Both the position numbers and the translations under genes were made by a program. A stretch of 56,118 nucleotides of DNA, taken from the NCBI GenBank assembly GCA_964001325.1, contig CAXFCR010000003.1, positions 1 through 56,118 on the forward strand, read 5' to 3'. Every line of letters begins with the position of its first letter. Within the stretch, counting starts at the first letter, position 1. This document shows, one piece after another, positions 3 to 56,118 of the stretch. The DNA is from an uncultured Gammaproteobacteria bacterium. GTDB taxonomy: Bacteria > Pseudomonadota > Gammaproteobacteria > Enterobacterales > UBA3532. The notes below the pieces were generated by a model. That model had not been told where the DNA came from and ran no database searches. It saw nothing but the letters and a program-made list of their open reading frames with translations.

Positions 3-293
3 GAGGACCTGCGAAAGGAAGCAATGTCACTCCGTAAGCGGTTAAGCTCGCAAGCTTCGAGACACGATCAGCCAACTTCAAGCGAAGTGAAACCTGTTCT
101 TAAGGACAGTATAAGTGTATGCGCTGAAAATGGTAAAACCCTAATCAAGGCGACCAATACACCAGGAGGCGGGATCGCGATTAAGATAGAACCAGAAGCT
201 ATCGCCACAAGCGAGCAAGAGTTCGAGCAGCTTTTTGGTCAGTTAAAAGCACAATTGACCAAAAGCATTGCAAAGAGAGGAGGGCACTGCTAA
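3..293 (+). CDS. 3' end of an upstream gene (hypothetical protein, probably 5'-truncated by the window)
   Basis: Frame 3 is open from base 3 (GAG GAC CTG CGA AAG GAA GCA ATG...) to TAA at 291-293, so the 89-aa ORF 24..293 may be the tail of a longer CDS. Alternatively it starts at ATG 24 with AAGGAA as RBS. No recognisable domain. Confidence 0.5.
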   Translation, partial: EDLRKEAMSLRKRLSSQASRHDQPTSSEVKPVLKDSISVCAENGKTLIKATNTPGGGIAIKIEPEAIATSEQEFEQLFGQLKAQLTKSIAKRGGHC

Positions 294-589
294 CAGGATT
301 CAATAATCTCGAGCTAGTGCCGTCTCGCAGAGCAATTGAGCGATTGCCGACCGCTTGAGCTCTACTCGCATCAACTTCAATGCTTATTGGGCGTTCCAAA
401 AGCGACAATCGAAGGAGCGGCTCAATTCTAAGCTGGCTAGACAAAACGATGAGCTCAGCTCAGCTAATGGATGGCGTCGTCTTAATTAATCTTAAAAGAC
501 CCACAGCCAAAGTAATTTTGCATGCTACTTGATCATAAACTTCGAGCTAAATAAAGTTCGTGATCTCACCCTGCGTTTTTCAATATGTT

Positions 590-618
590 TTGATTACAGA
601 GCTTGGGTAGATTATGAT
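590..618 (+). promoter_or_regulatory. Candidate sigma70 promoter for the giant-protein operon
   Basis: TTGATT (590-595), a 17-nt spacer and TATGAT (613-618) match the consensus at 4/6 and 5/6. It lies ~20-35 nt upstream of the likely start codons (640/652). A weaker candidate, TTGATC-17-TAAAGT, is at 529-557. Confidence 0.5.
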
Positions 619-651
619 TGTGCGCATTTTTCACCGTGTATGGATCTAATC

Positions 652-726
652 GTGCTAACAGGATATAGCTTAATCCGACGGTTACTAGTCACATTTGTGA
701 TTATTGCCGCGATTCCCGCTTTCGCA
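652..726 (+). other. Sec/SPI signal peptide of the giant protein
   Basis: RR n-region, hydrophobic LLVTFVIIAAI, and an A-F-A cleavage motif ending at 726. Confidence 0.75.
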
Positions 727-39700: not shown

Positions 39701-42700
39701 GCCAAGATAGCGAAAGCATTGGTGGTGGGGGACGAATCAGTATTCATGCTGCTAGTTGGGATATTCATTTCGAGTCCAATGCCCATGCTTATTCTGGTCG
39801 CGTGTTTGATCAGACCTCAGCACTGCAACCTGGAGCAGGCACTGTTTATTTCTTAAATACCGCGACTGGTGAAGATAAGTTGATTTTGGATAATGGAGGC
39901 CAGCCCGCATTTGAAGGATCCACTCCATACCCCTTCCTAGATAGCCCGGGAAATGGAGCCCCATATCCTGATGCTTTTGAAGGACAGCAGCGCTGGCACA
40001 TACCGCAAACCTATTGCTGTATAGAAAGAAATATTATCCCGATTGGTATCCTGGTCGATGTTAGCTCCGCTGAAAGCTTGAGTCCGTTATACACCTTGCT
40101 GGGTGCACAAAATAATGCTTGGGTTATTGATGCCCCCTTAACTGAGCCGCCAAATACCGAAGGGAGAGTCATCGGTGTATACGATACCCAGTCTCCACCT
40201 TCGGCGATAGTTAATGGACGTATTACAGGTGGAGCATCTCTTGGTTTTGGAGGGACTCGACTTATTTATCCAAACCTAGCTGCGACTAACCAATCACTGA
40301 GTATTAATGCAACAGAGGTACAGGTTACTGGCGATATTAGTGTCACGCAAAGTGGAGAGCTGGAACTGCAGGCAGACCAAGTCTTCGTTGATGGGGATAT
40401 AGTCGTGACAGAGGATGCATCATTGACGCTATCAACTGATAGCGTGATTGCTCTGGGTAGTATAAATATCTCCAATAACTCAAAGCTAACGCCTTCCTCA
40501 GATCGAACATTGAAGTTGGAAGTGGGGCACGATTTTTATCTCGACGAATCATCTATGGTTGATCTTGTTGGTAAGGGAGCTAATTACACCAGCCATTATA
40601 GTGAGACAGATTATGGGTGTAATGGTGGCACGAATCATTTAGGTTATAGAGCTTGTGTCGTTTCAAATGCATTCTGGCCAGCCTATGTCGGAGGAGCGGG
40701 GAATAGCGAGGGCGCCAATTCTGGAGGGTGGTTAGAGTTAATTGCAGTTAATGCTGTAATAAATGGATATATCGATGCTTCTGGTATTGGAAGCCCTCAG
40801 GGGGATGGTATTCCTGGCGCGGGAGGAACCATTTTGATCAACGCTCAAGCTCTTACGGGCTCTGGAAAGATAAAAGCGAATGCTGGTCCAACAACTGATG
40901 CAATGGCCGCCGGTGGTGGCCGAATAGCAGTAAAAGCAGATGATCGGAGCAATGATACAATTGATTATCAAGCTTATCCTACGCTAAATGGCACCCCTGC
41001 TGGGGCCGGGACGGTTTATCGAGTTGACCGAGAATTGGGGAGTGTTGGCACTCTGTATGTTCATTCGCCGGAGGCTACCCTGGCTAACTCAACCCACGTC
41101 AATCTGGGAGAATTAGGAAAGCCCTATTTCTATGGCCGTTTGGATTCAATAGAGCAACCCTCACCAGGCATTTGGCGACTCCAATTTAATTGGTTTAGCT
41201 TTAATAACTATGATTTCCAACCCTTGTTTGTTGATGTTAATTCAGCTAGCGATACGCCAGTGATTTATAAAGTCGCCAATATTCATGAAGATGAACGCTG
41301 GTTAGAAATTGAAACGACGGATGATCTCTCTGGGCTGGTATTCGATACGTGGGTTGAATCGGTATATGTCTTGGATGCTATCCAAGTATCAGGATTCGCT
41401 TCAGTGAGTTTATCGCACCCTACTGCCTTGCTCGATACGGCATCGTCGTATATTGACCCAGATGCTAGCTTGTTTGTTGATGGACGCGAGGTATTGCAAA
41501 TCAACAGCAACGGCCTATGCCTTGAGCAAAGCTGTGTAACGACGAGTGCCAGTGCGAGCGCAGTGGAAGAGACTAAGGAAAGCCATGAAGCAGCTGGTTT
41601 AGTTGCTGACGAAAGCACCACCTGGAAAGGGGATACCTATACATTTGAGCAAGCAGAGTTCATACCAGGGAATGTGATCCTGCAAGATAGTCAAGTCTCT
41701 TCACCTGAAATCATCGAGATCGAAGGGGCGCTTACCCTGGTTGGTGGCGTTTCACAAATTAAGGCCAAGCAGCTCATAGTGCACGGTGATGTTATTTTAA
41801 ATAACGCTAGTCTCCTTAACTTGGACTTGGTGGCAGGCATGCATGTTAAGGGTAGTAATGGACTACGTATCATTGACAACTCGATACTATCGGTGCCACA
41901 AGCGCGAATTCTGCCGCTTAAACGCCTAAGTCCGCTGTATATCGAAGTAGACAACACCATTGATATTAGCAACGACTCGATGATTCATGTTGATAGCAAG
42001 GGCTATCCGGGCGGTTATGCTGGACCTGAATTTACCAAACATCACGGAACGAACATTGGTTGTCACGTTGGCGTGGCCGATTTCATGTTAAAAGAATGTG
42101 TTTATGATGACTATCGCAAGCCGGTGTTTGCTGGAAGTGGTGGTGAACGTGTTGCTGGTGGTGGAACGATTAATATTAAAGCGAATGCCCTGCTTCATCA
42201 CGGACGCATATCCGCTAATGGCGCTATGGCGGAGCAAAATGACTATCCCGGCGCGGGTGGAGCGATATACTTGGATATTGGCACCTATCAAGGTACAGGA
42301 AGTATACTGGCAAATGCCGGGCGCTCTGGCGGATCGGTTGGTAGTTCTGGAGGGGCTGTGTCTTTAGTGGTCGACCAATTGATTGATACGCCATTTATTG
42401 AGGCGATAGCCAGTGAAGGTGGTAGTTTTGCGGGTACGGGAACCGTTTGGATCCGTGAAAGTAATAGCGATGGCAAGTTGATTGCTGATGCTGCAAATCC
42501 TGCTGCAACAGCGAGCACCTTGCTCCGACATGTGGGGCAGCACCAAGTATCACGGGTGTATCAAGATCAGAAGCATCCCAACCGGTGGTATGTGGAAGTG
42601 AATGGTGTGGCTTGGCAGGCAAGCAATGAGAGTAGTCGCCTTGGGGTCGCTGGTTTGTTGGTAGATTTTGACCTGCTGGATGATGATAGCCCGTTATATA

Positions 42701-43147: not shown

Positions 43148-43972
43148 ATGAAATTAAAATTACATGGCTTGTTGATTGTTTTGTCAGGATTAACCTTTAT
43201 ACCAGGGTGCGGAGGGAACAATGAAGGCATTTTGGCAACGGTTGGTGATCAACAGGTAACGCAAGAATTTTTTGATGCTTATATCAAATTTAAGCGGATA
43301 AAGATTGAAAATAAAGAGCAGCGACAACAAGTTCTTGATGATTACCTATCTCGGCTTCAATTAAGTCAGGCTATCGTTGAGACGGGTGTACTTGATACCC
43401 AGTCACTTGACGTGGAGCAGGAGTTGTTTCGCCAGGAAATGTTGCTTGGCCGCTATTTCGACAGCGTTTTAGATGAGAAGGTGGGTGAACAAAATCTGCG
43501 TAACTATTACGCCGCCCATATTGAAGACTATCAGTACAACCGAGCCCATTTGGCGCATATTCTAATCCGTACGCGCGAAAATATGCATGAGTCGGAAAAG
43601 CAAGCCAAGAGAAGCCAAGCGGATGACGTGTTCTCGCAGCTAAAGCGCGGCACACCCTTTGAGGAACTGGCGCGGCAGGTGTCTGATGACAAGCGCACCT
43701 CAAACAAAGGTGGGGACATTGGCTGGCTTAAAGAAGGAGCGATAGGGGAAGGCTTTTCTGAAGCAGCTTTTAATCTGAAAACCGGCGAGGTATCTGATGT
43801 TATTGAGTCTCGGTATGGGTTTCATATTATTAAAGCGATAAAGCAAAAAGAACCCTTTACCAAACCGTTTGAGTCGGTAAGGGGGGATATTCGCTACCAC
43901 CTTAGGCAAAAAAATAAAGCGGCAGAGAAAGAAAAGCTATTAAGCAGCATCGAGATAAAGAAATACCAATAA
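43148..43972 (+). CDS. PpiC/parvulin-type peptidyl-prolyl cis-trans isomerase, predicted lipoprotein (PrsA/SurA-like foldase)
   Basis: Parvulin motifs AHILI, FEELARQVSDD, KGGDIGW, FSEAAFNLKTGEVSDVIESRYGFHII. The N-terminus MKLKLHGLLIVLSGLTFIPG|C is lipobox-like, followed by a helical SurA/PrsA-like N-domain (LATVGDQQVT). It starts 4 nt after the giant gene's stop. Confidence 0.92.
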   Translation: MKLKLHGLLIVLSGLTFIPGCGGNNEGILATVGDQQVTQEFFDAYIKFKRIKIENKEQRQQVLDDYLSRLQLSQAIVETGVLDTQSLDVEQELFRQEMLLGRYFDSVLDEKVGEQNLRNYYAAHIEDYQYNRAHLAHILIRTRENMHESEKQAKRSQADDVFSQLKRGTPFEELARQVSDDKRTSNKGGDIGWLKEGAIGEGFSEAAFNLKTGEVSDVIESRYGFHIIKAIKQKEPFTKPFESVRGDIRYHLRQKNKAAEKEKLLSSIEIKKYQ

Positions 43973-43994: not shown

Positions 43995-46900
43995 GTGATG
44001 AATATGATACGTTCTTTATATTGGTGCTTCGTGCTCGTGGCTTTGGCGTTGCCCGCGTTTGCCAGTCAAGCGTTGTGGAATACCTCATTTGAATCCAATG
44101 CTGAAAAAGCGGCTTGGTCATTAAGCGACGGTTGGGACTATGCTGATAGTCAAGGTGAGCCGGTTTCGGGGTTACGCTATAAGACGGCTGGCTCTGGCAG
44201 TTCATTATCGCCTGAAAACGCTGAAAGCATCAGAAATAAATCCATTTTAGTACCCAGTACGGCAAAAGCCCCAGTGTTACAGGTTAACTATCGGATAAAA
44301 AATGCGGTAGTAACTTTTTGGGTTAAACGTGTCGGAAGTCGAAGTGGTTGGCATAGAGTTGGACGCATTGTTGGTAGTAACACGGTTAATACTCTAAAAA
44401 AGAAAGAAATATCGTTACATTCTCACAAGGGCCACTCACTGTTGTTAAAACTCACAGTTGAGTCGTTAACCAACCAAAATGGCTCTATAGACATCCAAGA
44501 GCTTAGCATTACGGATGTTCCCGATGTGACCTATCCTTTCCCATATCGTAATAGTTTCGATCCAACGGCAAGTGTTGATGAAAAAGCAGGTCTGGATCAT
44601 TGGCTGCTTCATGGTTTTTGGGGCGGTATCTCGTCGAATAAACACTATAAGAGCTTGTCTAAGCCATTTCACCTGAATGCCAATCCATCACGGAGCGTTT
44701 CGTCCCACTGGGCATTTATGCAGGCCCGAATGGATGGTTTTGTGAATATACCGAGTGATGCGAGTAATCCAATACTTCGTTTTCATTATATGTCAGGCGG
44801 ACTTTACCTCACGCTATATGCTCAAACCCAGCACGATGGAAAGTGGCACATCCTAAGGCGCTTTGGCCAACAGGATTACCGTCCGGTTTATACGCCGATA
44901 GAGATCGACTTGTCTGGGTTTAAAGATCAGGCCATACGCCTAAATTTTGCATATTCAGCTTCGGCAAATCGAACTATTCAGCCTTTCCTCGTCGATAATT
45001 TGGAAATTATTGATAACCAGCAGCCCTATAAAAATTACCCATTTACTGATAATTTTGAAACGCTAACAGATGACTGGTTATTGGAAGGCCTATGGAATAG
45101 TCAGGCACATCAATCCGCAGCCTATATTGATGTTGCGGATAACCAACAGTTATTGAGTGATATGGGAAAGCGGCACTTAAGCAGCAACCCAGATTATAAC
45201 GATTCGAATGGCTATGCACGTCGAGCAGCGCTAATGTCTCGTTTTGTGAAAATCCCGAAAAGTAGTATAAATCCCGTACTGAGATTTAAATATGCAACCA
45301 ATAGCACAAGGTTTCGGGTCTTATACCAAATGGAAGGTACGTCGCATTGGCATGTGTTAAAGGATTATGCCAAAGTGCATTTCTCGCAACGTTTCAAGTG
45401 GGAAGAAATCGATCTGGATGCATTTGTTGGCAAAAGTATCCGCATCAAATTTGAAGAATTTGTGGTGTTTGGCCAATCAGCAAGCTTTATTGCCGTTGAT
45501 AACGTTTATATCGGAAACGTGCAGCTAGACGATTATGACTATCCTTACAATACCAATTTTGAGGAGCCTCTGGGGCGTCATGACTCTCAAAAAGACACCA
45601 ATGCACTAAATGATATCAACGGCTGGAGTGACTGGAGTTTTGAAGGTACCTGGGGGATACAGCGGTCAACCTCAAGCAGGCCGAGTGAAAGTGGTGATTA
45701 TTACCTGACAAGTCGCATAGATGACATGAAGGTGACAAGGGCTCATAAGTTGTCGAGCCGTTTACAAGGGTTTATCACTATTCCTGAAGACGCGACGAAT
45801 CCCACAGTGAGCTTCTCTCAATTTAGCCCGGCTGCTCTAGGTAGCATTCATGTTCAGAGCGCAAGCGATAGTGGCTGGAAGGCGCTCACTTCACTGACCA
45901 ATATACAGGTAGCCGACAATGGATATCAGCGGGTCCACTACAGTTTAAGTGGTTATGAAGGACAGCGTATTCGTTTGCGTTTTGACGATGTCATAACACC
46001 AAGCGCAACATCTGCGTGGATGATTGACAATCTCCGGGTAGGGGATGCTGAAACCGATACGGCTATTTCCGACTTCGACACCGATGGGGATGGGATATTT
46101 AATGATTTTGATGAATATCCCAATGATCCCAGCCAGTATAAATTAGAGCCTGTTTCAAGCGTCGATACGTTATTTACCGGTGAGTTAAACCAAATTACCT
46201 GGCAGCATCATAATAACGATGTTGCTTATTACCGAGTATACCGGCGGGAAAACAATGGCGAATTTATTTTAATAGCGGATAAGTTATTAGGAACCTCTTT
46301 TAGAGATACCCAATTTAATAATGGTAGTGTCTATCAGTATTATGTCAGTGCCGTTAGTTATGTCAGTGGGGAGGGTGATCCTAGTGCATTATCTGAAAAC
46401 TGGGTCACTACCCATCACCACTCCGTAGCTAATCTTTTGGCCGTTGCTAATATTGTCAGCATCGACCTGTCATGGATTAAGAGCCCTTGGCCCGTCGTTA
46501 TCAAGCGGAGTAAGAATGGCGGCATGTTTACGCCGATAGCAACGCTCCGGCCGAGAGTTAATCAATATAAAGATACGCCGCTAAGTGCAGGTGAATATCG
46601 TTATCAGGTCATTAGCTTTCGAGAATTTGTCCACCCCATTACCGGTGAGCGAAAAGTGATCTATGGCCGAATTTTGCAGACGCCACCTAAAGTTATTTTG
46701 CCACTTCATCCCCTTGAGTGGACGTTTACCCAACCCGAGCCTGATCAGAATCATGAGATGCGTGAATATGTTTTGTCGGGAGCAGAGTTGCATGTTCACG
46801 GCACAATCATTAACCGTCGTGTTCCAATGAGTATAGAAGCCGTGAGTGGGACTGAAGTTATTACTGGAACGATTAGCAATGGCGAGTTTGAAATAACCTT

Positions 46901-49900
46901 ACCTTATCAAGCAACGTCTACGGCCTGGGAAGTACGGCTCAAAGAAGTGGGTGAGCCCTATCGCCAACTTAGCCAGATAGTATGGGTTTTGGCGGATACA
47001 AAAGCACCAACCCTTCGTTTGGATAACCAAGATCAAATGACCTATGAGTTCGAATGGGAGATCACGGGCAGTATTGTGGAAGAAGGGCACGGTCTGGCGG
47101 AGTTTTACCTGACCAATAGTTTACAGCCTGACAATCAAGTCAGTCTAACCGCTGATGACAGTGGGCAGTACGCCGCCACTATCTCTCTGATAAGAGGGAT
47201 AAATACCATAACGGTGGTGGCCATAGATAAATCGGGGAATCGCTCAGAAGCTCAGGTAACCATTGAGCAGAGAGAAAACCCAGATCGAGATGGCGATGGT
47301 GTTCTCAATAGCCAAGATGAATTTCCCGATGACCCAACGAAGTTTAGGCTCAGCCCCATCGAGCAGCTGACCATAGCATCTGCTCCGGCGCTGGTAACTG
47401 TATCATGGCCAGCGCATACCGACCCTGTTGCCGCCTATCGAGTGTACCGACAGAAAAATAGTGACGACTATCAACTGCTCTCAGGTGATGTTCTTTCTAC
47501 CAGTTTTACTGACCATAAAGTTGAGTTGGGCGGGTTTTATCAATACTACGTTGTCGCGGTGGGCTTCCGAAGCGGTGAGAGCGATCCAAGTCCCGCGAAA
47601 AGTACATGGCTAACATTCAATGACAAAGGGGTTGAGCAAGCCCTTGCTACAGTAAATATCACCAGTATAGAGCTAACCTGGGGGGCGATGTCACTCCCAG
47701 TTGTTGTTGAGCGTTCAATGAATGGCGGCGAATTTGCCCAAATAGCAGAGATAGCGCCTGGCGTTAATCAATATAAAGATGCGTCTCTTCAAGCAGGGCA
47801 GTATCAATATCAACTATACACCCAGCGACAATTTCAGCATCCAGTTACATTAGATGAGGCACTGATTGATGGTCCTGTCACTGAATTAGAACCATTGACG
47901 GTGCATGAACTTTTATCCCTTGATTGGTCGTTTACCGAGCCAGATAGCATCAATGGTGAAAGGGGAAGCTACATCAAAGAAGGCGAAACACTTAAGGTTA
48001 GTGGCACCATTATTAACCCTATTGTTCCGCTTCAAATAAGTGCGACAGCGGGAGATGTAGAAGTGGCCGGACAGGTGGTAAACCATCAGTTTACGTTAGC
48101 ATTGCCTTATCTGCCGAGCACGACAGCCTGGACCGTTGTGCTTTCTGAACCAACGGAGCCATTTCGCAGGCTCACTGAAACGGTGATGGTGTATGCCGAT
48201 ACAACCCCTCCCGATCTAAAACTAAGCAATGCAAACGCGGTAACATTTGAATATTCCTGGACTATACAAGGCAGCGTCGTAGATACAGAGCATGGCCTTG
48301 CGGAGGTCTTCGTATCAAACAGCCTGACGCCTGGTGAGAGCCAGGCTATTCAGGTGGATGACAATGGCCAGTTTTCAATCAATGTGCCGTTAGTTCGAGG
48401 GCTAAATAATATTCGTGTTACGGCACGGGATCGCTCTGACAATAAATCTGAAGCTAGCGTAACCATTGAGCAACGAGAAAACCCTGATCGGGATGGTGAT
48501 GGGGTGCTAAACGATGTCGATGAGTTTCCCGACGATCCCAGCCGTTATAGGCATAAGCCTGTTACCGGACTGTCTATCACTGCATCTGATACAAGCGTTA
48601 AACTCATGTGGGATCAGCATCCAGAAAACCCACCATTTTTCCGCATTTACCGACGTGAAAATCATGGCAGCTACCAGTTATATCAAGACAACGTCAGCGC
48701 ATATGAGTTTATTGATCAACATATCACGAATCTTACAGGCTATCAGTATCAGGTCGTGCCGGTTGGAAACGTCAGCGGGGAAGGGGGGATTGCGCCAAGC
48801 GTTGAGACTTATATTGCCTACAATAATCAGCAGGTAACAGAGCTTGAAGCCGTAGTAACAGCCAATAGCATTGGCCTCTCCTGGACAAATAATACCGGGC
48901 TGCCAGCTAAGCTTTATGCGCTTTCAAATGTCGGCACGCCACTTTTGGTCAGTGAAGATAAGCAAGTGATCCATAGGCTTACCACGTTAGAGGCTGGACA
49001 ATATCGCTATCGTGTGCAAACAGAAATAGTAACGACCAATGTTTATACCAACGAAGTGCTTAAGCTTGCTGGCCCCGCGTTAGATACAGATCTTTTAACC
49101 GTGGAGCCACTCAGTGACATTGTGTGGACTATTCAGACGCCACAGTTTGTTAAGAATGCACCTTATTATCCTACAACAGTTGAGCCTTTGGTGGTTAGCG
49201 GAACAGTTGATGGCGTAATGGCCGATATTAGTATTACCGCGATGGTTGAAGGCAATGAGCCAATAGAGGCAACGATAAATGAACAAAACTGGCAGGTAGC
49301 CATTCCTTATCCAGATGGGGAGTCGCGGGTTACCTTTACCCTGTCCGAGCTCAGTATCCCTTCTCGAACCCTCACAAAAGAGGTGGTGATAGCCAAAGAT
49401 GATCGTGCGCCGGATATCGATGTTTTTGCTGAAAGCCTTACCAAAGAAGAGCAAATAGTCATCCATGGTACAGCAATAGACAGCGAAACCGGGATCCAGG
49501 CATTATCTGCTGTGAATAACTTAGTGCAAGGGACGACATTCGATATCTCGACCGATGCGAATGGTGATTACAGCATGCAAATACCATTATTGATCGGCAT
49601 CAACACCATCACTGTTACCGCAACTGACTACCTCGGCAACACCGAAACGGCAACCGTATCTATTACGCGAGAGCCCAACGGCCCACAGGTAACCTTTGCT
49701 TCACCAGCGAACAATAGCGTTATCTATCCTCCTGCTGAATCCGAAACAGAATCACAGGAAGGTACTATTAGTGTGGTGCTGAGCATAACAGCCATTGAAC
49801 CCATTGATGATATTTCGGTATCGCTTAACCAGGGTGGCGATTTGACCCTGACCGGAGAAGGGGGTGTCTATACGGCAACCTTTACCGGAGTGATGTTGCA

Positions 49901-52031
49901 AGAGGGTGATAACTACATTTCCGCTATTGCGCAATCGCCTTCGGGAACAGGTTCGGCAGCGGTGAACGTGTTTTATCATTCGGATGAGCTGACGGCTTCG
50001 AATCCTCCAACACTGAACTGGCAACTTCCCTATGACAACCAGCTGGTCAAAGGTGAAGAAGTGAAAGTAAGCGCTAGTGTCTCGGCGCAAACCCCTGTTA
50101 GTGTTTCAATTAACGGGCAAGCGGCCACATTGGTGAATGGCACGTTAACTTCAGGGACGGTTGCTGAAAAGGTTAGCATACCAGAAGGTGTCTCTGAGTT
50201 TGCTATTACCATCACGGTAACGGACCTAGCGGGCGGCGAAGTATCTCAAACCAGAACGGTTTACCGAGATAGCCAATTACCGACAATCAGCGTAGATAAT
50301 GGCTTTAGTGAATACCCACAGCTTAATCTGATAACAGCGAATCCTGTTGTGATCCGAGGGCAGGTTGCTGATGACAACTTAGCCAGTTTAACCATTGATG
50401 GAGTAACTGCACAGTTCACCCAGAGCGGTGATAATCAATATACGTTTAATGGCGTCGTCGAACTGCCCGTCAATGAAAACCATGTAGTATCTATTGTCGC
50501 CCGTGATCATGCTGGGAATGAATCCTCTGTTAGTTACACCATGCTTTATCAAGCAGCGGTCGCAGCGAAAATCATTATTCCTGAGCGAGGCGCAGTCTAT
50601 AGGCCATCAAGCGACTCATGGGAGCTGGAGCTTACCGCACTTGTTACACCAGCCGGAGACTACCGGGCGTCCCTTGTTGTCGAGCAACAGGCTTATGAGC
50701 TATCAATCAATAATGGGGTTATTAATGGTCAGGTTGAGCTAAGTGATTTGAGTGGTGAGGTAGAGCTATATCTGAAAATACAAAATCTAGATGAAGAAAC
50801 TCTCGCACTGGTATCCAGAACGGTACAAGTCGAGCCGTTTCTTGATCAGACATTAGCCGTCAGTCGCACCGAGCCACCTAATCTTGCGACCGGGGTAGAG
50901 CCAGTCCGCCCTGTTAGTATTTTCTTCAATCAGGCGATTGATAACGATCTGCTTAGTATTGAAGTGAGAGAAACTGCACACGGAAAAACCTATTTTACCG
51001 ACTATGCACCAGGAACCAGTGTTTTACAGGCGCAGGGAGCACAAACGGTAGCGGTTAACCGAGACCACTCGCTGGTTGAGGGGGATTTAAGCTTCCTTCC
51101 TGGCAACATGCTAACGGTTTTTTACCCTAAAAAGACATTAGCTTTTGGGGCAACGGTATATGTGGATATTAACTATGATGGCAATGAACTCTATCGATTT
51201 AGTTACCAAACTCGTAAAATCCCCACATTCTTAACCGGCGTGGTTAGCGACCAGTTTAATCAAAACATCTCAGGCGTTGAGGTTTCGATCCCTGAGCTTG
51301 GTCGTAAAACCCTAACCGATGAAAACGGGGGGTATGGTTTCGGGTTTGATGATTCAGAAGAAAATGCGATACCAGCAGGAAATTACGAAGTCTGGGTTAA
51401 TAGAGAGTATAAATTAAGCCATTTTGGTGCAGCCAGTCGGCTAATCCATATCGAGGAGGGCGAGCTAAATCGTGCGCCCATGCTGGTGGTACCACAGCTT
51501 GATCCTTCGCGCAGTTATCAAGCCGTGTCTTCTGAGCCTACTACGCTACATTTGGCGGAAGGGGAGTTAATTATCACCTATGATGATGCTGTTGCATGGG
51601 AGTTTCCCAATGAAGCATTGGTACAGGGTATTCGTGCTGACTTTATACGCTCCGACCAAATTGGCATGTCGGCAGCAGCTGTCGAAAGCATCCCGTTATG
51701 GATGTTTAATATTCAGCCTGCGGGTATTGAACTGAGTGGCGACGTCGATCTGGACTTTTTTATTCCGAAAAATCCGTTGGGTTTCTGGCTGTTAAAACAA
51801 GATGCCGAATATGTCGTTATATTAGGCGTAGATAAAAACAGCCTTACTATCGTGCCGATTGGTGCTGGTGTTGTTGAAGGTGGGCGAGTTAAAGCATCGC
51901 TTGAGCTTGAACAGCAACGACTAGATTATCTGGGATATGCCAGTGTTTCTTATGAAACCGAGGCTGTTCTTAAACAATATTTAAATGGCGAGCTTAGCTG
52001 GTTTCAGGTTCTAGCTCGCTTAGCCCCATAA
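43995..52031 (+). CDS. Large (2,678 aa) exported MAM-like / FN3 / Ig (glucodextranase-B-like) / carboxypeptidase-regulatory-like domain protein
   Basis: ORF track. GGGA RBS at 43983-43986 (start GTG 43995 or ATG 43998). Signal peptide ...FVLVALALPAFA|SQA. FN3 motifs (YYRVYRR...YQYYVSAV), Ig motifs (GINTITVVAIDKSGN), Big_5-like (LAVSRTEPPNLATGV) and CarboxypepD_reg-like (LTGVVSDQFNQNISGVEVSI...TLTDENGGY). Confidence 0.9.
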   Translation: MMNMIRSLYWCFVLVALALPAFASQALWNTSFESNAEKAAWSLSDGWDYADSQGEPVSGLRYKTAGSGSSLSPENAESIRNKSILVPSTAKAPVLQVNYRIKNAVVTFWVKRVGSRSGWHRVGRIVGSNTVNTLKKKEISLHSHKGHSLLLKLTVESLTNQNGSIDIQELSITDVPDVTYPFPYRNSFDPTASVDEKAGLDHWLLHGFWGGISSNKHYKSLSKPFHLNANPSRSVSSHWAFMQARMDGFVNIPSDASNPILRFHYMSGGLYLTLYAQTQHDGKWHILRRFGQQDYRPVYTPIEIDLSGFKDQAIRLNFAYSASANRTIQPFLVDNLEIIDNQQPYKNYPFTDNFETLTDDWLLEGLWNSQAHQSAAYIDVADNQQLLSDMGKRHLSSNPDYNDSNGYARRAALMSRFVKIPKSSINPVLRFKYATNSTRFRVLYQMEGTSHWHVLKDYAKVHFSQRFKWEEIDLDAFVGKSIRIKFEEFVVFGQSASFIAVDNVYIGNVQLDDYDYPYNTNFEEPLGRHDSQKDTNALNDINGWSDWSFEGTWGIQRSTSSRPSESGDYYLTSRIDDMKVTRAHKLSSRLQGFITIPEDATNPTVSFSQFSPAALGSIHVQSASDSGWKALTSLTNIQVADNGYQRVHYSLSGYEGQRIRLRFDDVITPSATSAWMIDNLRVGDAETDTAISDFDTDGDGIFNDFDEYPNDPSQYKLEPVSSVDTLFTGELNQITWQHHNNDVAYYRVYRRENNGEFILIADKLLGTSFRDTQFNNGSVYQYYVSAVSYVSGEGDPSALSENWVTTHHHSVANLLAVANIVSIDLSWIKSPWPVVIKRSKNGGMFTPIATLRPRVNQYKDTPLSAGEYRYQVISFREFVHPITGERKVIYGRILQTPPKVILPLHPLEWTFTQPEPDQNHEMREYVLSGAELHVHGTIINRRVPMSIEAVSGTEVITGTISNGEFEITLPYQATSTAWEVRLKEVGEPYRQLSQIVWVLADTKAPTLRLDNQDQMTYEFEWEITGSIVEEGHGLAEFYLTNSLQPDNQVSLTADDSGQYAATISLIRGINTITVVAIDKSGNRSEAQVTIEQRENPDRDGDGVLNSQDEFPDDPTKFRLSPIEQLTIASAPALVTVSWPAHTDPVAAYRVYRQKNSDDYQLLSGDVLSTSFTDHKVELGGFYQYYVVAVGFRSGESDPSPAKSTWLTFNDKGVEQALATVNITSIELTWGAMSLPVVVERSMNGGEFAQIAEIAPGVNQYKDASLQAGQYQYQLYTQRQFQHPVTLDEALIDGPVTELEPLTVHELLSLDWSFTEPDSINGERGSYIKEGETLKVSGTIINPIVPLQISATAGDVEVAGQVVNHQFTLALPYLPSTTAWTVVLSEPTEPFRRLTETVMVYADTTPPDLKLSNANAVTFEYSWTIQGSVVDTEHGLAEVFVSNSLTPGESQAIQVDDNGQFSINVPLVRGLNNIRVTARDRSDNKSEASVTIEQRENPDRDGDGVLNDVDEFPDDPSRYRHKPVTGLSITASDTSVKLMWDQHPENPPFFRIYRRENHGSYQLYQDNVSAYEFIDQHITNLTGYQYQVVPVGNVSGEGGIAPSVETYIAYNNQQVTELEAVVTANSIGLSWTNNTGLPAKLYALSNVGTPLLVSEDKQVIHRLTTLEAGQYRYRVQTEIVTTNVYTNEVLKLAGPALDTDLLTVEPLSDIVWTIQTPQFVKNAPYYPTTVEPLVVSGTVDGVMADISITAMVEGNEPIEATINEQNWQVAIPYPDGESRVTFTLSELSIPSRTLTKEVVIAKDDRAPDIDVFAESLTKEEQIVIHGTAIDSETGIQALSAVNNLVQGTTFDISTDANGDYSMQIPLLIGINTITVTATDYLGNTETATVSITREPNGPQVTFASPANNSVIYPPAESETESQEGTISVVLSITAIEPIDDISVSLNQGGDLTLTGEGGVYTATFTGVMLQEGDNYISAIAQSPSGTGSAAVNVFYHSDELTASNPPTLNWQLPYDNQLVKGEEVKVSASVSAQTPVSVSINGQAATLVNGTLTSGTVAEKVSIPEGVSEFAITITVTDLAGGEVSQTRTVYRDSQLPTISVDNGFSEYPQLNLITANPVVIRGQVADDNLASLTIDGVTAQFTQSGDNQYTFNGVVELPVNENHVVSIVARDHAGNESSVSYTMLYQAAVAAKIIIPERGAVYRPSSDSWELELTALVTPAGDYRASLVVEQQAYELSINNGVINGQVELSDLSGEVELYLKIQNLDEETLALVSRTVQVEPFLDQTLAVSRTEPPNLATGVEPVRPVSIFFNQAIDNDLLSIEVRETAHGKTYFTDYAPGTSVLQAQGAQTVAVNRDHSLVEGDLSFLPGNMLTVFYPKKTLAFGATVYVDINYDGNELYRFSYQTRKIPTFLTGVVSDQFNQNISGVEVSIPELGRKTLTDENGGYGFGFDDSEENAIPAGNYEVWVNREYKLSHFGAASRLIHIEEGELNRAPMLVVPQLDPSRSYQAVSSEPTTLHLAEGELIITYDDAVAWEFPNEALVQGIRADFIRSDQIGMSAAAVESIPLWMFNIQPAGIELSGDVDLDFFIPKNPLGFWLLKQDAEYVVILGVDKNSLTIVPIGAGVVEGGRVKASLELEQQRLDYLGYASVSYETEAVLKQYLNGELSWFQVLARLAP
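44073..46045 (+). repeat. Four tandem MAM-like/jelly-roll domains
   Basis: Starts LWNTSFE, YPFPYRNSFD, YPFTDNFE and YPYNTNFE, each followed by W-x-x-x-G/D-x-W, later IP-x-x-A/S-x-x-P-x-L/V and I/Y-x-L-x-x-F/Y/H-x-G/D-x-x-I/L. They end IQELSI, VDNLEI, VDNVYI and IDNLRV. Confidence 0.6.
46077..49670 (+). repeat. Three ~401-aa tandem repeats (DxDGDG loop + FN3 + FN3 + Ig + Ig)
   Basis: DTDGDGIFNDFDEYPNDP at 46077, DRDGDGVLNSQDEFPDDP at 47283 and DRDGDGVLNDVDEFPDDP at 48486, with periods of 1206 and 1203 nt. Nucleotide similarity is visible at the junctions (accattgagca..gagaaaacc). Confidence 0.85.
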
Positions 52032-52044
52032 AAGGAAGTATGTC

Positions 52045-55000
52045 GTGCAGTTAAAGCGCCACCAAAGAATTTACCAATACCTATGGATAGCCCTGCTCTT
52101 AAGCCTATCCTTTCAGGTCACCCCCGCCACCAACAAAGCCACCACCCAGGGTCGGGTATTCGCCAAAGTCATGGTCTTTGACGACGAAGGGAACCCGATT
52201 TGGGCGGAATACGACACCGAAAACAGCACCGACGAAGGGGAAGCGCTGGTTAATGTCATAGGCCCGGCCACGGGCGAACTGGCGGCGGGGGAAGCCCGCG
52301 TCTACTCTGCTGAACTCTACCGCGCCTATCAAGCGCTCTACACCGCCTACCAAAACAGCAGCCAATACCCCGACGCCGAAGGCGCTGTGATGATGACGCG
52401 GGAAGAGTATGAAAATCACAGCTTTGAAACCGCCTTGGGCGACCCGATAGACGCCCCGGATCTGCAAGACGCCACCCACCAGGTACTGGTGCTCAATAAA
52501 AGTAAACTAACTAGCACCTCAAGCGAACGCTACGACGTCAGCGAGCAGGGCTACTTCTTATGGGATATCGAAGATGGCATCGAACTTATTCCCGATACCG
52601 ACTTCGGCGACGCCTTTGTCATGCCCGCTGAACTCTATCGCCAATACGCCGCCTTGCCCACCGACTCACCGGTATTAGACGCCTTTGATTTTGCGTTCAA
52701 TAGCAATATCAGCTCAAGCGCTAAGTACCTGCTGCTCAGCCAAAGTGGCACCATCCTGCACGAATCTGCGCAGCCGATTGAACTGCGGCGCAAAAGCGAG
52801 CCCACCAGCCCGATATTGATGGAAGTGCCCTTTATTCTGACCAACGAACAAGGCGAACTCTTCCCGCCACCGAATGAAGACACCGCCAGTATCCTGTTTA
52901 AAAAAGACGGTACCATCCATCAAAGCTCGAAGTTTAATATCGGCTTTCAAACGGCGGTTTATCAAGATAAAGACGACGCCTACCACAATACCGGCAAGCC
53001 CCATCTCGGGAAGGGCGACACCATCTTAGGCCCGGTTCGGGGCATGATGGTCGAAAACAGCGGGGCGCATCCCGGTATCACCCAAAGCATAACCGATGAA
53101 GACGGCCACTTTAAACTGCTACAAATCCTCACCTGTCCTGGCTTTGACTTTGAATACACCATCAGTTTAGTTTACAAACTGGATATTCAACGCTTTAACC
53201 CGTTTCGAGGGCGACATAACACCTTTATTTACAAACGCGGCATTGACTACCGTTGGTGTTGGGGCTCGCATGAACTATTGCTTGGTTCTGGCTCTTTGGC
53301 GGGAATGTCGGCCTACATGTCAGCCGTTGCTATCCTCGCCACCAATGCCGTACCTTACCGCTATAAATACGTCAACTTCTCCATGAACTACCTCTCCGGC
53401 TCCGCGTTTCTAAAGAACGTCGAAGTGGTAGCGGATGAAGAATTCCAGCGGCGTGAATACGACATCGAAGACAGCGACGACTTCCCGAGTGCCTTTGGCG
53501 AGAATAAGCACGACACCGTGCTGGTGCAATCCAACTTCGATTTGGATAATGACGACATCCCCGAATACACCGTGCGTGGTAACATCGTGGTGGTCGACAA
53601 CAACTACCACTTTGCTCCAGCAGCGGACGGCGACTACCAAGGCGTCTACCTCAGCTCGCTGCCCTTCACCGCACCGCCTGAGCCGGATGCCAGCGACGAA
53701 GACATCGACGCCTTCTTGCCCGACTACCCGCACCTACTAAAACGCATCGACAAAGCCACCGATTTACGCAACAAAGGCCTGCCCACCAAAATCAGTGTCG
53801 ACGACCTCAGCCACACCGACATCCTGCTCTTTCGCGAATCGGACGGCAGCCTTATCATGGAGCGCCAGGGCCTGCGCGATGACGAAGCGCCGCGTTATCA
53901 GCGCACCGGCGTTAGCGACAACGAAGACAACGCCCCAAGCGAAGAAGAAACCCAAGCCGACAACCCCGGCGATGACGAACTCGACCTCTCCTACGACAAC
54001 GGCCAGCGCTTCACCTTTAATGTTATCTTTGTCGACCCCGAAGGCTACCAGCACGCCACCTTCTTGCGTCGCAACTTCACCGACGAAGAATCCGCCAACG
54101 GGGTCAGCTCCTTCTCCATCTTTCAATCCGAAAGCTACTTCACCGACGACTACCAACAGCGCGATGCCGACCACCTGCGCCCGGGTGAATTTATCACCGT
54201 GGTCATCATCAACCGCGCCACCGGCTACCTCGCCACCCAACGACTGCAAATACGCAGCGCAGGCACCAACGAAAACAACACCAACCCGGACGATTTGTTT
54301 AACGACGACGAAGACCCCGCCCAGGTTATCGAAGGGGAAAACACCCCACGCACCCAGGCCAGCCTGTTGTTATCCAACGTCATGCTCGAACCGCCCAACC
54401 TCAAAATCCAGGTCGAACGCCAAGTCAGCGTCGAGCATGGCCTGACCGCCTCGGATGACAGCAAACGCTACACCGTTGGCTACGAAGGCGCCGCCACCAC
54501 CCAGGATGACGCCATCATCATCAAAACCGCCTGGTTCGATCAAGACGGCAGCATGCTGCCCAAGGGCCTGGAAGACTACGGCTTTACCGGGCGCATCGCC
54601 AAAGTCGAAGAGCTGGCCGGTGGCACCAGCCAAATCAGCCACTTCAACATCGAGCCGGGCGCCCACACCGAAGTGCTGCGGCTGCAAGGGGCGGATATTG
54701 GCAAAAACCGCTACTACATCCACGTTAATGGCTTCTACGAAGGCCATAATGTCACCCCCAGCTTTGGTGAGCTGGCCGACAAATTCCTGCCCGATGGCAA
54801 CCAAAGCGACACCTCGCCATTCAAATACCGCCCAGAAAGCTTCGTCCCGTTTAAAGTACCGGTATCGCTCGACTACAACGTGATTGAAGCGGAAAACAGC
54901 TACGCCGAGCTACGCCAGGACATTTTAGATGGGGATAACGACTTAACCCTCGACGACATCGGCGACACCCCGGCCCAACCCTACGCCTGGCTCTATCGCC

Positions 55001-56118
55001 CGGAAATGCAATTCTCCACCTACGATTTGGTCATCAATGAGGTCAACAAACAAACCCAATGGGGAGAGCAGCTTGACTTGATGGACCAACAAGCCCTGGA
55101 AGAGGCCGGGTTCAAAGGCCCGGTCATCAGCGCCCAAGGGGACGACTGGTTTCAGGTCGTCTACGACTTATTTGCCAGCGACAGCGAGCTGGCCCCACTG
55201 ATAGGCCCAGACAACCACGACCTGCTCTGGGGGCTATACGGTGAAGAAGTGCTCGCCACCTACGGCGAAGAGAATGTCGCCACCATGCACAATGTCGAAA
55301 TGCTGCAACACCTCGACACCACCGACTTACTCATCTTCCGGCTCTATCAAAACAACGACCCCTCCAACATCCTGTGGGAATTTGGGGTGCAGCGCTCACC
55401 GCTGGATATTCAGGGCTATGCTCGGCTAACCCAAAAACAGCAAGACAGCCTGGACAGCCCGGTGAATGAGGACGACATCAACCGCCCCGACGGTCACACC
55501 TTGCTTAGTCGGGCAAAAGGCGCCAACAAAACCTTAGACGTCTACCGTGAAGTTGACATGGCCAACGGCCAAGTCTGCTCAGTAGGCGGGGTTATCTTCT
55601 TTGAAACAAAAAAAGACATTACCGCCAAACTTGAACTCATCCCTATCAAACTGAGTAATGGCAGTAGCGCTGCGGCGGAACTCAGCGCCGACTCCGACTA
55701 TGAGCTGGTTGAAAGCGAGGCCCACGTCGTCTTTGAAAACAAAACCTATGCTGAGGGCATGCACAAAATCGGCATCCAGTATGACGACCTGCCCGATGCC
55801 CAAAATACCCAGCCAGGCAGTGATGGTCAATCGGGCAACAAACGCTACATCTATCGCCTCAGCGCCGAATGGACCACCGACAGTGGCGACACCTTCAACG
55901 ACATCGCCCAGGACTTTTTATCTTACGGCTACAAAACCTACGACAAACTGCCCATCGGCCAAACCCTGGTCAAAGGGGTCAACCTGTTCTCGGGCGACTA
56001 CACCCAAGGCAACACCGACATCGCCTTTGCTGGTCGTGGCCCGGCGCTGCGCTTTAGCCGCATCTACAGCTCCAGCCTGCCGGATATGGGCCCGATGGGC
56101 AACGGCTGGGGGCACAAC
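52045..56118 (+). CDS. rhs: N-terminal part of a large Rhs/YD-repeat protein (DUF6531-like domain at the window edge), 3'-truncated and absent from the ORF track
   Basis: Read by hand. AGGAAG RBS at 52033-52038, GTG at 52045, and frame 1 open to 56118 (1,358 codons). N-terminus MQLKRHQRIYQYLWIALLLSLSFQVTPA is signal-peptide-like. The last codons read LPIGQTLVKGVNLFSGDYTQGNTDIAFAGRGPALRFSRIYSSSLPDMGPMGNGWGHN, the VN..G......D....G....L.F.R.Y.S.....G..G.GW.H motif that opens Rhs cores. Confidence 0.85.
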   Translation, partial: MQLKRHQRIYQYLWIALLLSLSFQVTPATNKATTQGRVFAKVMVFDDEGNPIWAEYDTENSTDEGEALVNVIGPATGELAAGEARVYSAELYRAYQALYTAYQNSSQYPDAEGAVMMTREEYENHSFETALGDPIDAPDLQDATHQVLVLNKSKLTSTSSERYDVSEQGYFLWDIEDGIELIPDTDFGDAFVMPAELYRQYAALPTDSPVLDAFDFAFNSNISSSAKYLLLSQSGTILHESAQPIELRRKSEPTSPILMEVPFILTNEQGELFPPPNEDTASILFKKDGTIHQSSKFNIGFQTAVYQDKDDAYHNTGKPHLGKGDTILGPVRGMMVENSGAHPGITQSITDEDGHFKLLQILTCPGFDFEYTISLVYKLDIQRFNPFRGRHNTFIYKRGIDYRWCWGSHELLLGSGSLAGMSAYMSAVAILATNAVPYRYKYVNFSMNYLSGSAFLKNVEVVADEEFQRREYDIEDSDDFPSAFGENKHDTVLVQSNFDLDNDDIPEYTVRGNIVVVDNNYHFAPAADGDYQGVYLSSLPFTAPPEPDASDEDIDAFLPDYPHLLKRIDKATDLRNKGLPTKISVDDLSHTDILLFRESDGSLIMERQGLRDDEAPRYQRTGVSDNEDNAPSEEETQADNPGDDELDLSYDNGQRFTFNVIFVDPEGYQHATFLRRNFTDEESANGVSSFSIFQSESYFTDDYQQRDADHLRPGEFITVVIINRATGYLATQRLQIRSAGTNENNTNPDDLFNDDEDPAQVIEGENTPRTQASLLLSNVMLEPPNLKIQVERQVSVEHGLTASDDSKRYTVGYEGAATTQDDAIIIKTAWFDQDGSMLPKGLEDYGFTGRIAKVEELAGGTSQISHFNIEPGAHTEVLRLQGADIGKNRYYIHVNGFYEGHNVTPSFGELADKFLPDGNQSDTSPFKYRPESFVPFKVPVSLDYNVIEAENSYAELRQDILDGDNDLTLDDIGDTPAQPYAWLYRPEMQFSTYDLVINEVNKQTQWGEQLDLMDQQALEEAGFKGPVISAQGDDWFQVVYDLFASDSELAPLIGPDNHDLLWGLYGEEVLATYGEENVATMHNVEMLQHLDTTDLLIFRLYQNNDPSNILWEFGVQRSPLDIQGYARLTQKQQDSLDSPVNEDDINRPDGHTLLSRAKGANKTLDVYREVDMANGQVCSVGGVIFFETKKDITAKLELIPIKLSNGSSAAAELSADSDYELVESEAHVVFENKTYAEGMHKIGIQYDDLPDAQNTQPGSDGQSGNKRYIYRLSAEWTTDSGDTFNDIAQDFLSYGYKTYDKLPIGQTLVKGVNLFSGDYTQGNTDIAFAGRGPALRFSRIYSSSLPDMGPMGNGWGHN

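Follow-up and report, generated by a model that had tools for sequence, protein, structure and literature searches.

How do Rhs toxins leave the cell? Their exit is well understood for T6SS (type VI secretion system) effectors and for Tc toxins, whereas Rhs proteins with a signal peptide sit in a default 'Sec/T2SS' class (T2SS, type II secretion system) to which little mechanism is attached. The question is raised by a locus on contig CAXFCR010000003.1 of assembly GCA_964001325.1, from an uncultured gammaproteobacterium (Enterobacterales; UBA3532), in which the open reading frame (ORF) that begins at position 52045 carries a very long N-terminal extension and runs off the contig just as an Rhs region starts. 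The window, that is, the whole stretch of DNA analysed (56,118 nucleotides), is contig C3 in full; the source assembly has 436 contigs, is ~95% complete (94.9%) and has 47% GC. We read the 52045 product as an Rhs polymorphic toxin, exported by Sec and probably secreted by the T2SS, on a carrier of ~1,090 residues (aa) that is shared by secreted and surface proteins of giant-adhesin operons. Taken as a whole, including the Sec plus T2SS route, this explanation has a probability of about 0.6 in our estimate.

Translated in frame 1 from the GTG at 52045 on the + strand, the ORF comprises 1,358 codons that stay open as far as 56118. It has no stop codon because the contig ends there, which accounts for the frame without an in-frame stop that had been described in an earlier note, made from the letters of this DNA alone. 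The motifs singled out in that note lie exactly where it had placed them (GPVRGMMV at 53029, SITDEDGHF at 53086, DLDNDDIPE at 53539 and INRATGYL at 54208), and an independently made metagenomic gene call, P0010, has the same first residue as our ORF. The parts of the gene are as follows.

52032-52038, + strand: ribosome-binding site AAGGAAG, read from the sequence, 6 nt 5' of the GTG and abutting the stop codon of the upstream gene.
52045..52128, + strand: predicted Sec signal peptide (aa 1-28), with a basic n-region, the hydrophobic core YLWIALLLSLSF and TPA at the likely cleavage site.
52129..55404, + strand: carrier module (aa ~29-1120), acidic, all-beta and multi-domain, belonging to no named family; delimited with phmmer and AlphaFold2.
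52495..52794, + strand: lineage-specific insert (aa 151-250), with a column conservation of 0.03-0.08, peculiar to the 52045 protein.
53032..53382, + strand: main part (aa 330-446) of a putative, split transthyretin-like/CarboxypepD_reg-like beta-sandwich, holding GPVRGMMV...SITDEDGHF, Cys364 and Cys405.
53539..53565, + strand: acidic loop DLDNDDIPE, family consensus DFDGDGxxD.
54208..54231, + strand: INRATGYL (in the family, IIAINRxTGYIGT), one of the motifs that are best conserved in the module.
55342..55380, + strand: LYQNNDPSNILWE (aa 1100-1112), the conserved motif nearest the C-terminal end of the module; the variable C-terminal part begins just after it.
55405..55977, + strand: linker (aa 1121-1311) between the module and DUF6531, beta-rich by eye.
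55978..56118, + strand: first 47 residues of DUF6531 (PF20148; aa 1312-1358), the entry to the Rhs region, broken off by the contig end.

The class of the protein is given by its last residues. The earlier note had supposed a DUF6531-like motif from ~55950, and PF20148 indeed matches above its cut-off (34.2 bits against 24.1, E 3.3e-8) over positions 4-49 of its 74-position profile; it is the only Pfam family across all 1,358 residues, and an NCBIfam scan of the same residues matched no family. The description of the extension as non-PAAR also held, with no PAAR, VgrG or Tc-type trafficking domain found by Pfam or NCBIfam in aa 1-1311. A metagenome-derived fragment, P0003, is identical to the 52045 protein at 907/908 residues (99.9%) over aa 451-1358 and extends 231 aa beyond it, through a complete DUF6531 (E 2e-11) into an RHS_repeat/YD match (22.3 bits, cut-off 22).

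Searches of the assembly's own contigs with RHS_repeat, YD_repeat, DUF6531 and Rhs_assc_core did not recover the rest of the gene, and the Rhs-associated core TIGR03696 had no match over its cut-off in this genome. A YD/RHS gene at C30:5889-8414 (-) was considered as the missing 3' part and rejected, being a separate and complete ORF of 842 aa; it encodes an unrelated YD/RHS-repeat protein with a signal-like N-terminus. Among the relatives, each of the 15 long or partial sequences scanned has RHS_repeat behind the module, and 13 of them have DUF6531 as well; Rhs_assc_core lies 250-450 aa from the C-terminus in all 11 full-length Rhs relatives, and a GH-E nuclease, a Tle1-like lipase and DUF6765 (Pfam) occur as toxin tips. 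Full-length Rhs relatives that share the N-terminal region measure 2,733-3,374 aa, and we infer a complete protein of about 3,000 aa for the 52045 gene. On the strength of the 231-aa extension of P0003 and of these relatives, which are ~30% identical, the gene would be the front of an exported Rhs/YD polymorphic toxin gene whose shell, core and tip lie outside the assembly.

An incomplete gene at a contig end could also be a decayed or chimeric remnant, either a pseudogene or an assembly artefact, and Rhs regions are known as places where assemblies break. We consider this very improbable: 1,358 codons stay open in DNA of 46% GC behind a good ribosome-binding site, the four + strand ORFs of the contig are tightly spaced as in an operon (gaps of merely 4-22 nt), every residue that is invariant in the family is present in the 52045 protein, and P0003, an independent record, continues in frame.

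The extension itself opens a large protein family. With aa 111-1310 as the query, an exhaustive phmmer search found 484 cluster representatives (50% identity) at E<=1e-3, 384 at E<=1e-10 and 252 at E<=1e-30, while a word-indexed search among longer proteins gave only P0002, a weak match. The match starts close to the N-terminus of the protein in most full-length representatives and breaks off, in most representatives, at query aa ~1113-1128, so that the junction is sharp. With a front that is constant up to this junction and ends that are exchanged behind it, the extension divides into a module of ~1,090 aa and a linker of ~190 aa; of the single unit of ~1,300 aa that had been proposed earlier, the first ~1,120 aa proved to be conserved, and the idea that the whole was one unit did not hold. 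The acidity noted earlier is borne out, at an isoelectric point of 4.3 with 186 D+E against 77 K+R.

Neither Pfam, NCBIfam nor PDB sequence profiles (E<=1) matched the module, the ESM Atlas gave nothing above 0.79, and Pfam scans of three sub-segments at E<=10 returned nothing meaningful; the linker, where the small Ig-like domain supposed in the earlier note (55580-55880) would fall, likewise had no Pfam match at E<=10. In full-text literature outside subscription journals, we found no description of the module or of its operon. Relatives in a scan of one genome per species come nearly all from Gammaproteobacteria, with a few from Desulfobulbia, and the genera or groups include Shewanella, Pseudoalteromonas, Kangiellaceae, Rheinheimera, Colwellia, the Pseudomonas group, Cellvibrio, Hahella, Reinekea and Thiodiazotropha, among others. 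That the 52045 protein is an Rhs-class toxin on a new, family-wide carrier module is the part of our reading in which we have high confidence.

Conservation was read from two homologue alignments, of 87 sequences and of 60 sequences (A2). Within INRATGYL, N723, R724, G727 and Y728 are invariant in both. The DLDNDDIPE loop, which we take to resemble a calcium-binding loop, has an invariant D499, with D503 and D507 at least 90% conserved (A2). At the end of the module, LYQNNDPSNILWE (family form LYxNNDxxNxLWE) combines invariant D1105 and N1108 with L1100, N1103, L1110 and W1111, each at least 90% conserved. Further conserved motifs are ADHLRPGE..IIAINRxTGYIGT, PPNLKI.AER, GYTGRLAKV and YRPExQFS, and C364 and C405, one pair, are the sole conserved cysteines.

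The module is not restricted to Rhs proteins. Ends of at least five classes stand behind it; tail classes were counted among 151 representatives, of which sets of 8, 15 and 27 were scanned to name the domains.

Tail of 120-300 aa: 27 representatives; no Pfam family in those scanned.
Tail of 300-850 aa: 35 representatives; DUF900/Abhydrolase_6 and Peptidase_M15_3.
Tail of 850-1450 aa: 63 representatives; Big_1/Invasin_D3 and Laminin_G.
Rhs tail: 13 representatives, and two partial Rhs proteins outside the 151; DUF6531, RHS_repeat and toxin tips.

These classes are fully intermixed in a FastTree phylogeny built from 87 rows and columns 255-1120 of the module; it was made quickly, has no bootstrap values, and some of its short members may be fragments. 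The Rhs label requires 7 changes for 8 rows on this tree, against a mean of 7.8 when labels are shuffled, and near-identical modules bear different ends. Such an architecture, in which a constant front meets exchanged ends at a sharp junction, is that of polymorphic toxin systems.

The first step of the export route is indicated by the N-terminus. Read by eye from the translation, K4, R5, H6 and R8 are followed by the hydrophobic stretch YLWIALLLSLSF and then by TPA/T, and a crude hydropathy test also scores this N-terminus as Sec-like. A crude test of hydropathy and charge finds signal-like N-termini in 70 of the 77 homologues that have complete N-termini, which extends to the family what had been claimed earlier for the single protein. 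In the AlphaFold2 model, a helix occupies aa 2-22 and the first strand starts from 28.

A Sec-type signal that is conserved in the family bears directly on delivery by a T6SS, in which the long N-terminus would act as an unusual adaptor for loading onto VgrG or PAAR. Many proteobacterial Rhs toxins are T6SS effectors, and some payloads of the module family are named after such effectors (a Tle1-like catalytic domain in P0072; DUF900). Yet aa 1-1311 contain no PAAR, VgrG, DUF4150 or other T6SS family (E<=1; sub-segments E<=10), and no T6SS genes are among the recurrent neighbours of the 74 loci surveyed. In the organism's own genome, PF05943 (VipB/TssC) had no match at E<=0.01, an absence that is likely to be real at 94.9% completeness. 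Delivery by a T6SS thus has a very small chance of being right.

The genes upstream of 52045 are also predicted to encode exported proteins.

529..43143, + strand: giant ORF that opens the operon, 14,204 codons long; Big_7, TIG, Big_5, LVIVD and Laminin_G_3 (Pfam).
43148..43972, + strand: lipoprotein peptidyl-prolyl isomerase (PPIase) of the PpiC/parvulin type, 274 aa; Rotamase_3 E 1.1e-30, N-terminus ...TFIPGC, lipobox-like.
43995..52031, + strand: signal-peptide, immunoglobulin (Ig)-like protein of 2,678 aa; Pfam Glucodextran_B x5, CarbopepD_reg_2 and others.

The giant protein, the PPIase (lipobox-like) and the 2,678-aa protein all begin with signal sequences, as is predicted for the 52045 protein; translation of the giant protein probably starts from the ATG at 640, behind which comes its signal peptide, RRLLVTFVIIAAIPAFA. 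The giant ORF would rank among the largest bacterial proteins, and its long C-terminal region is without a Pfam match. Upstream of it, a frame of 96 codons at 3-293 (+) is open at the 5' end of the contig.

This gene order recurs. In a synteny survey of one genome per species, 126 matches were confirmed and 74 loci kept. The recurring order is giant gene, PPIase, second PPIase, homologue of the 2,678-aa protein (conserved in its C-terminal 600-1,200 aa), module gene and small variable ORFs; giant genes keep the same place in relatives, additional module genes often come after the first, and stop and start coordinates of adjoining genes frequently abut. Of the module genes that measured 400 aa or more, 94 in all, 19 lacked sequence on their upstream side; directly 5' of the remaining 75 stood a member of the 2,678-aa family in 47 cases, another module gene in 14 and other neighbours in 14. 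The earlier note had asked whether relatives of the extension always lie next to giant Ig/IPT genes: a close and recurrent association was found, and its immediate partner is the 2,678-aa family, in 47 cases rather than always.

PPIase homologues number 61 ORFs in 31 loci, and most relatives encode two paralogous lipoprotein PPIases between the giant gene and the gene of the 2,678-aa family, of which the window has only one. The ORFs after module genes are mostly unmatched; some give weak or partial BamB-like (PQQ_2) beta-propeller matches (L062/L084, L007:15832-17043), and in Ectopseudomonas oleovorans (L062/L084) a 990-aa ORF lies 3' of a module gene of 1,092 aa. A Peptidase_S26 (type I signal peptidase) gene stands beside the cluster in 14/74 loci from various genera (for example, L007:17155-17805 (-)), which suggests that these exported proteins of very great length have a leader peptidase of their own.

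The strongest clue to the second step, passed over when the delivery route was first considered, is that a complete gsp operon is physically joined to the cluster, or adjoins it, in at least four lineages. In Pseudoteredinibacter isoporae, gspCDEFGHIJKLM ends 294 bp 5' of the co-directional giant gene, and the last product of the operon is a module protein of 3,024 aa, classed by its length alone. In Ectopseudomonas oleovorans, gspC-gspD lie divergently ahead of the giant genes, with gspEFGHIJLM on the other flank, behind the module gene and three uncharacterised ORFs; a gspC-gspD pair adjoins the giant gene in Pseudomonas sp. 286, and loci of the Pseudomonas group include GspE in 6 and GspF in 5. 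Neptuniibacter has a complete gsp operon ~6 kb downstream of the ORF that follows the module gene, and the metagenome-assembled genome (MAG) 'BB4' has gspC-M upstream of an orphan module gene. Secretins in Shewanella and Aliikangiella were considered as T2SS components and set aside, as they lie in pilMNOPQ-like arrays and are PilQ-like (by the sizes of neighbouring ORFs and 25% identity to GspD).

Such a route has precedents in print. The study of Bcn-A, an Rhs bacteriocin of Xanthomonas perforans, reports that activity was lost in an xpsD mutant (PMC7259588); a class of Sec/T2SS polymorphic toxins with lineage-specific N-terminal domains is described by Zhang et al. 2012 (PMC3482391); and, according to a preprint, giant genes of Omnitrophota adjoin T2SS-like loci and a Rotamase_2 PPIase (bioRxiv 10.1101/2023.11.21.568195).

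We propose that all four operon products would pass the inner membrane via Sec and fold in the periplasm with the aid of a dedicated PPIase, after which the T2SS would carry them onto the cell surface or into the medium. The module would be their common handle, either recognised by the secretion step or anchoring the payload to the surface structure built by the 2,678-aa family and the giant protein, and the Rhs cage may then pass its C-terminal toxin to a neighbouring cell. For the Sec plus T2SS route taken by itself, we see the balance as tilting slightly in favour.

Several observations weigh against this explanation. There is no gsp gene on the 56-kb contig; the organism's own genome does have GspG, on contig C36, but a T2SS is nearly universal in these bacteria, so its presence alone says little. 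In only 2/20 further genomes is gspG on the locus contig near the locus. It lies ~870 kb from the locus in the complete genome of Allohahella, and in several genomes, among them Cellvibrio sp. 79, Reinekea and a Cellvibrionaceae MAG, the locus contigs or scaffolds are 0.7-2.3 Mb long and the gspG match is on a different contig. The spread of the module is patchy, with 2 carriers among 30 genomes of the same order. The signal peptide looks like one to the eye and to a crude script rather than to a trained predictor, and the YD shell, core and tip are lacking in both the window and the assembly, so that the toxin nature of the 52045 gene is deduced from its relatives. The model of the module offers no hint of a binding or catalytic site, its fold matches being generic beta-sandwiches at middling Z scores. 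Finally, most members of the family have no recognisable toxin: 63/151 have tails of 850-1450 aa (Big_1/Invasin_D3/Laminin_G in those scanned) and 27 have tails of just 120-300 aa.

Because most members lack recognisable toxins, the module may be primarily a structural or adhesive surface protein. Its main role would then be as a part of a giant-adhesin fibre made together with the 2,678-aa family and the giant proteins, a building block instead of a trafficking tag, and the toxin-bearing forms, the 52045 protein included, would be secondary, 'evolved' versions, much as evolved VgrG proteins carry effector domains. The module and the C-terminus of the 2,678-aa protein are both chains of beta-sandwiches, like adhesin stalks; the fixed gene order with its often abutting stop and start coordinates fits a structural assembly; and a single chain from Myxococcaceae, P0002, unites 2,678-like domains, part of the module core and DUF6531-Rhs. 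What speaks for toxin carriage is that near-identical modules swap ends that include a peptidoglycan peptidase, lipases and Rhs-nuclease toxins, the pattern of polymorphic toxins, and that several module genes may stand in a row, with small variable ORFs behind each of them, in a layout that resembles toxin/immunity arrays. This alternative overlaps our own explanation and differs from it chiefly in emphasis; we rate it as the less likely of the two, with roughly the standing of an outside chance worth keeping in view.

A further proposal of the earlier note was that the extension is a trafficking or adaptor module that docks on the upstream giant proteins. Its first half is supported by the shared carrier and the tight synteny; physical docking on the giants, as stated there, is unsupported. 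In the 2,678-aa protein, the core shared by the family that lies directly 5' of module genes consists of the last ~600-860 aa. AlphaFold2 models the final 599 aa of the protein at a mean predicted local distance difference test (pLDDT) of 87.9 as a chain of five beta-sandwiches: two FN3/E-set-like, one CopC/Big_5-like (Z 12.7), one transthyretin-like (Z 11.6) and an unmatched terminal domain that ends in two helices. Homologues of this family (A3) contain many tandem acidic repeats of the DxDGDGxxD type N-terminal to the core, which echo the single loop of the module and presumably resemble thrombospondin type 3 repeats.

A complex prediction that paired module residues 560-1125 with the 395 C-terminal aa of the 2,678-aa protein, a single pairing run without controls, scored 0.00 and 0.01, which speaks neither for binding nor against it. 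P0002 (4,107 aa, partial) combines the 2,678-like Ig/CarboxypepD_reg domains (E 9e-13) with the module-core piece (E 4e-8) ahead of DUF6531-Rhs; the piece corresponds to module aa 710-830, and the protein may represent, in another phylum, a fusion of the two genes that are neighbours here, which lends weak, fusion-type support to a functional link. Conserved gene order, abutting stop and start coordinates and this one weak fusion protein give docking indirect support and make it plausible, but we rate it as less likely than not that the module docks on the 2,678-aa family or on the giant protein.

The same pair of genes invites comparison with Tc (ABC) toxins, in which case the 2,678-aa protein would be a TcA-like translocator and the module-Rhs protein a fused TcB-TcC cocoon. 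A large-protein gene followed by an Rhs-cage gene, comparable sizes (about 2,500 and about 3,000 aa) and Teneurin/Tc-type YD-shell matches in relatives would all suit such a system. In contrast, neither the 52045 ORF nor the 2,678-aa protein has TcA, TcB or SpvB families in Pfam, and the C-terminus of the latter models as Ig-like sandwiches, not as an alpha-helical shell and channel. All components here have predicted Sec signals, which Tc subunits, to our knowledge, do not, and the same module bears ends other than Rhs. A Tc-like system is accordingly most improbable, and we retain the reading as a Sec-exported toxin on a shared carrier.

For the module itself, AlphaFold2 with the 60-sequence alignment gave a pLDDT of 79.5 and a predicted template modelling (TM) score of 0.81, with an all-beta, multi-domain body. 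Confidence falls below a pLDDT of 50 within the lineage-specific insert, at 160-170, 177-200, 209-219 and 244-252. Aligned with VIA-align, the split sandwich near the N-terminus matched the transthyretin-like (TTR) domain of teneurin (8fia_A, Z 8.1), the N-terminal extension of SusC (9hfj_A, Z 8.0) and carboxypeptidase D (1qmu_A, Z 7.6), over 78-83 residues drawn from aa 28-56 and 330-446 at root mean square deviations (rmsd) of 2.1-2.4, with Z scores that fall in the tool's 'common' range. The carboxypeptidase-regulatory-like segment described earlier thus finds some support at the level of fold, with a middling Z of 7.6-8.1, and has no Pfam match of its own. Identity with alpha-2-macroglobulin or its macroglobulin (MG) domains, the top Foldseek result against the PDB (E ~1e-4), was rejected at TM scores of 0.06-0.08 and an rmsd above 40; an alpha-2-macroglobulin ring is further ruled out by the lack of a CxEQ thioester motif and by a total of 3 cysteines. 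We make no claim of a new fold, because the aligner hardly tested the module past residue ~670.

Rhs toxins with signal peptides and N-terminal carrier domains are already known; what we found in no text or domain library searched is this module, with its size, its spread and its fixed operon. The nearest counterparts are the Sec/T2SS polymorphic toxins such as MafB of Neisseria (MAFB-N/DUF1020), which, according to the available text of PMC3482391, likewise combine a signal peptide (a predicted one in the 52045 protein), a conserved N-terminal domain, an optional RHS part and a variable toxin, and occur in arrays of toxin genes each followed by small variable ORFs. The constant N-terminal part with exchanged C-terminal parts that marks this class is found in the module family. 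Compared with MAFB-N, the module is far larger (about 1,090 aa) and has no sequence match to named families; it is spread beyond a single lineage over many gammaproteobacterial genera, and the genes beside it in its fixed operon encode a giant Ig protein, PPIases and a multi-Ig protein.

Bcn-A is similar in being an Rhs/YD toxin that needs the T2SS secretin and has accessory and immunity genes alongside, but it differs, in a comparison made by description only, in its length of 1,398 aa and in a modelled plug and beta-propeller ahead of the YD barrel; the accessible part of that article (PMC7259588) does not mention an operon with a giant protein and PPIases. Omnitrophota loci, likened here by description only, are similar in that the gene of a giant extracellular protein stands beside gspD/E/F-like genes and a parvulin-type PPIase of its own, whereas they belong to another phylum, and carrier-module proteins and Rhs toxins go unmentioned in the available part of the preprint (bioRxiv 10.1101/2023.11.21.568195). 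The TANFOR-domain polymorphic toxins of Bacteroidetes, set apart by description only, have another domain and belong to another phylum, as far as the accessible text of PMC7073777 goes.

Relatives of the 52045 protein share with PAAR-Rhs effectors of the T6SS (Tse5, RhsA) the order DUF6531, YD shell, Rhs-associated core and C-terminal toxin, whereas the 52045 protein has a predicted Sec signal in place of a PAAR- or VgrG-binding N-terminus and no sheath gene was found in its genome. Teneurins (fly 8fia_A) and the TcB/TcC cocoons of Tc toxins have a YD-shell cage in common with Rhs members of this family. Structurally, the module is matched best (Z 8.1) by the teneurin TTR domain, which lies upstream of the YD region and is also one of several tied matches of the 2,678-aa C-terminus (Z 11.3, best 12.7); in the module, by contrast, ~900 aa separate the TTR-like domain from DUF6531, a large insert interrupts that domain, and its Z score is middling for a common fold. 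No FN-plug/NHL or SpvB/propeller match was found in the 52045 protein.

The finding defines a large, previously unnamed carrier module, with hundreds of sequence clusters in many genera, and provides an annotation handle for about 500 clusters of 'hypothetical' proteins of 1,100-3,400 aa. It ties the module to an operon of constant make-up, with a giant surface protein, dedicated PPIases and a multi-Ig partner, and in several lineages this operon lies inside a T2SS locus. The giant proteins, the 2,678-aa family and the module proteins may be T2SS substrates, sometimes of a dedicated system, that together form a long surface fibre with exchangeable, module-borne payloads on its tip or side, which would amount to an unrecognised form of contact-dependent toxin display in Gammaproteobacteria. 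We regard this as speculative and rather unlikely at present; if true, the ~1,090-aa module would be a universal docking adaptor and the parvulin lipoproteins assembly chaperones. The locus raises the questions of whether a T2SS can export 300-kDa Rhs cages and megadalton adhesins, what the module binds and whether giant proteins serve as platforms for toxin display, and these can be tested in culturable and non-pathogenic carriers of the locus such as Pseudoteredinibacter isoporae and Shewanella nanhaiensis.

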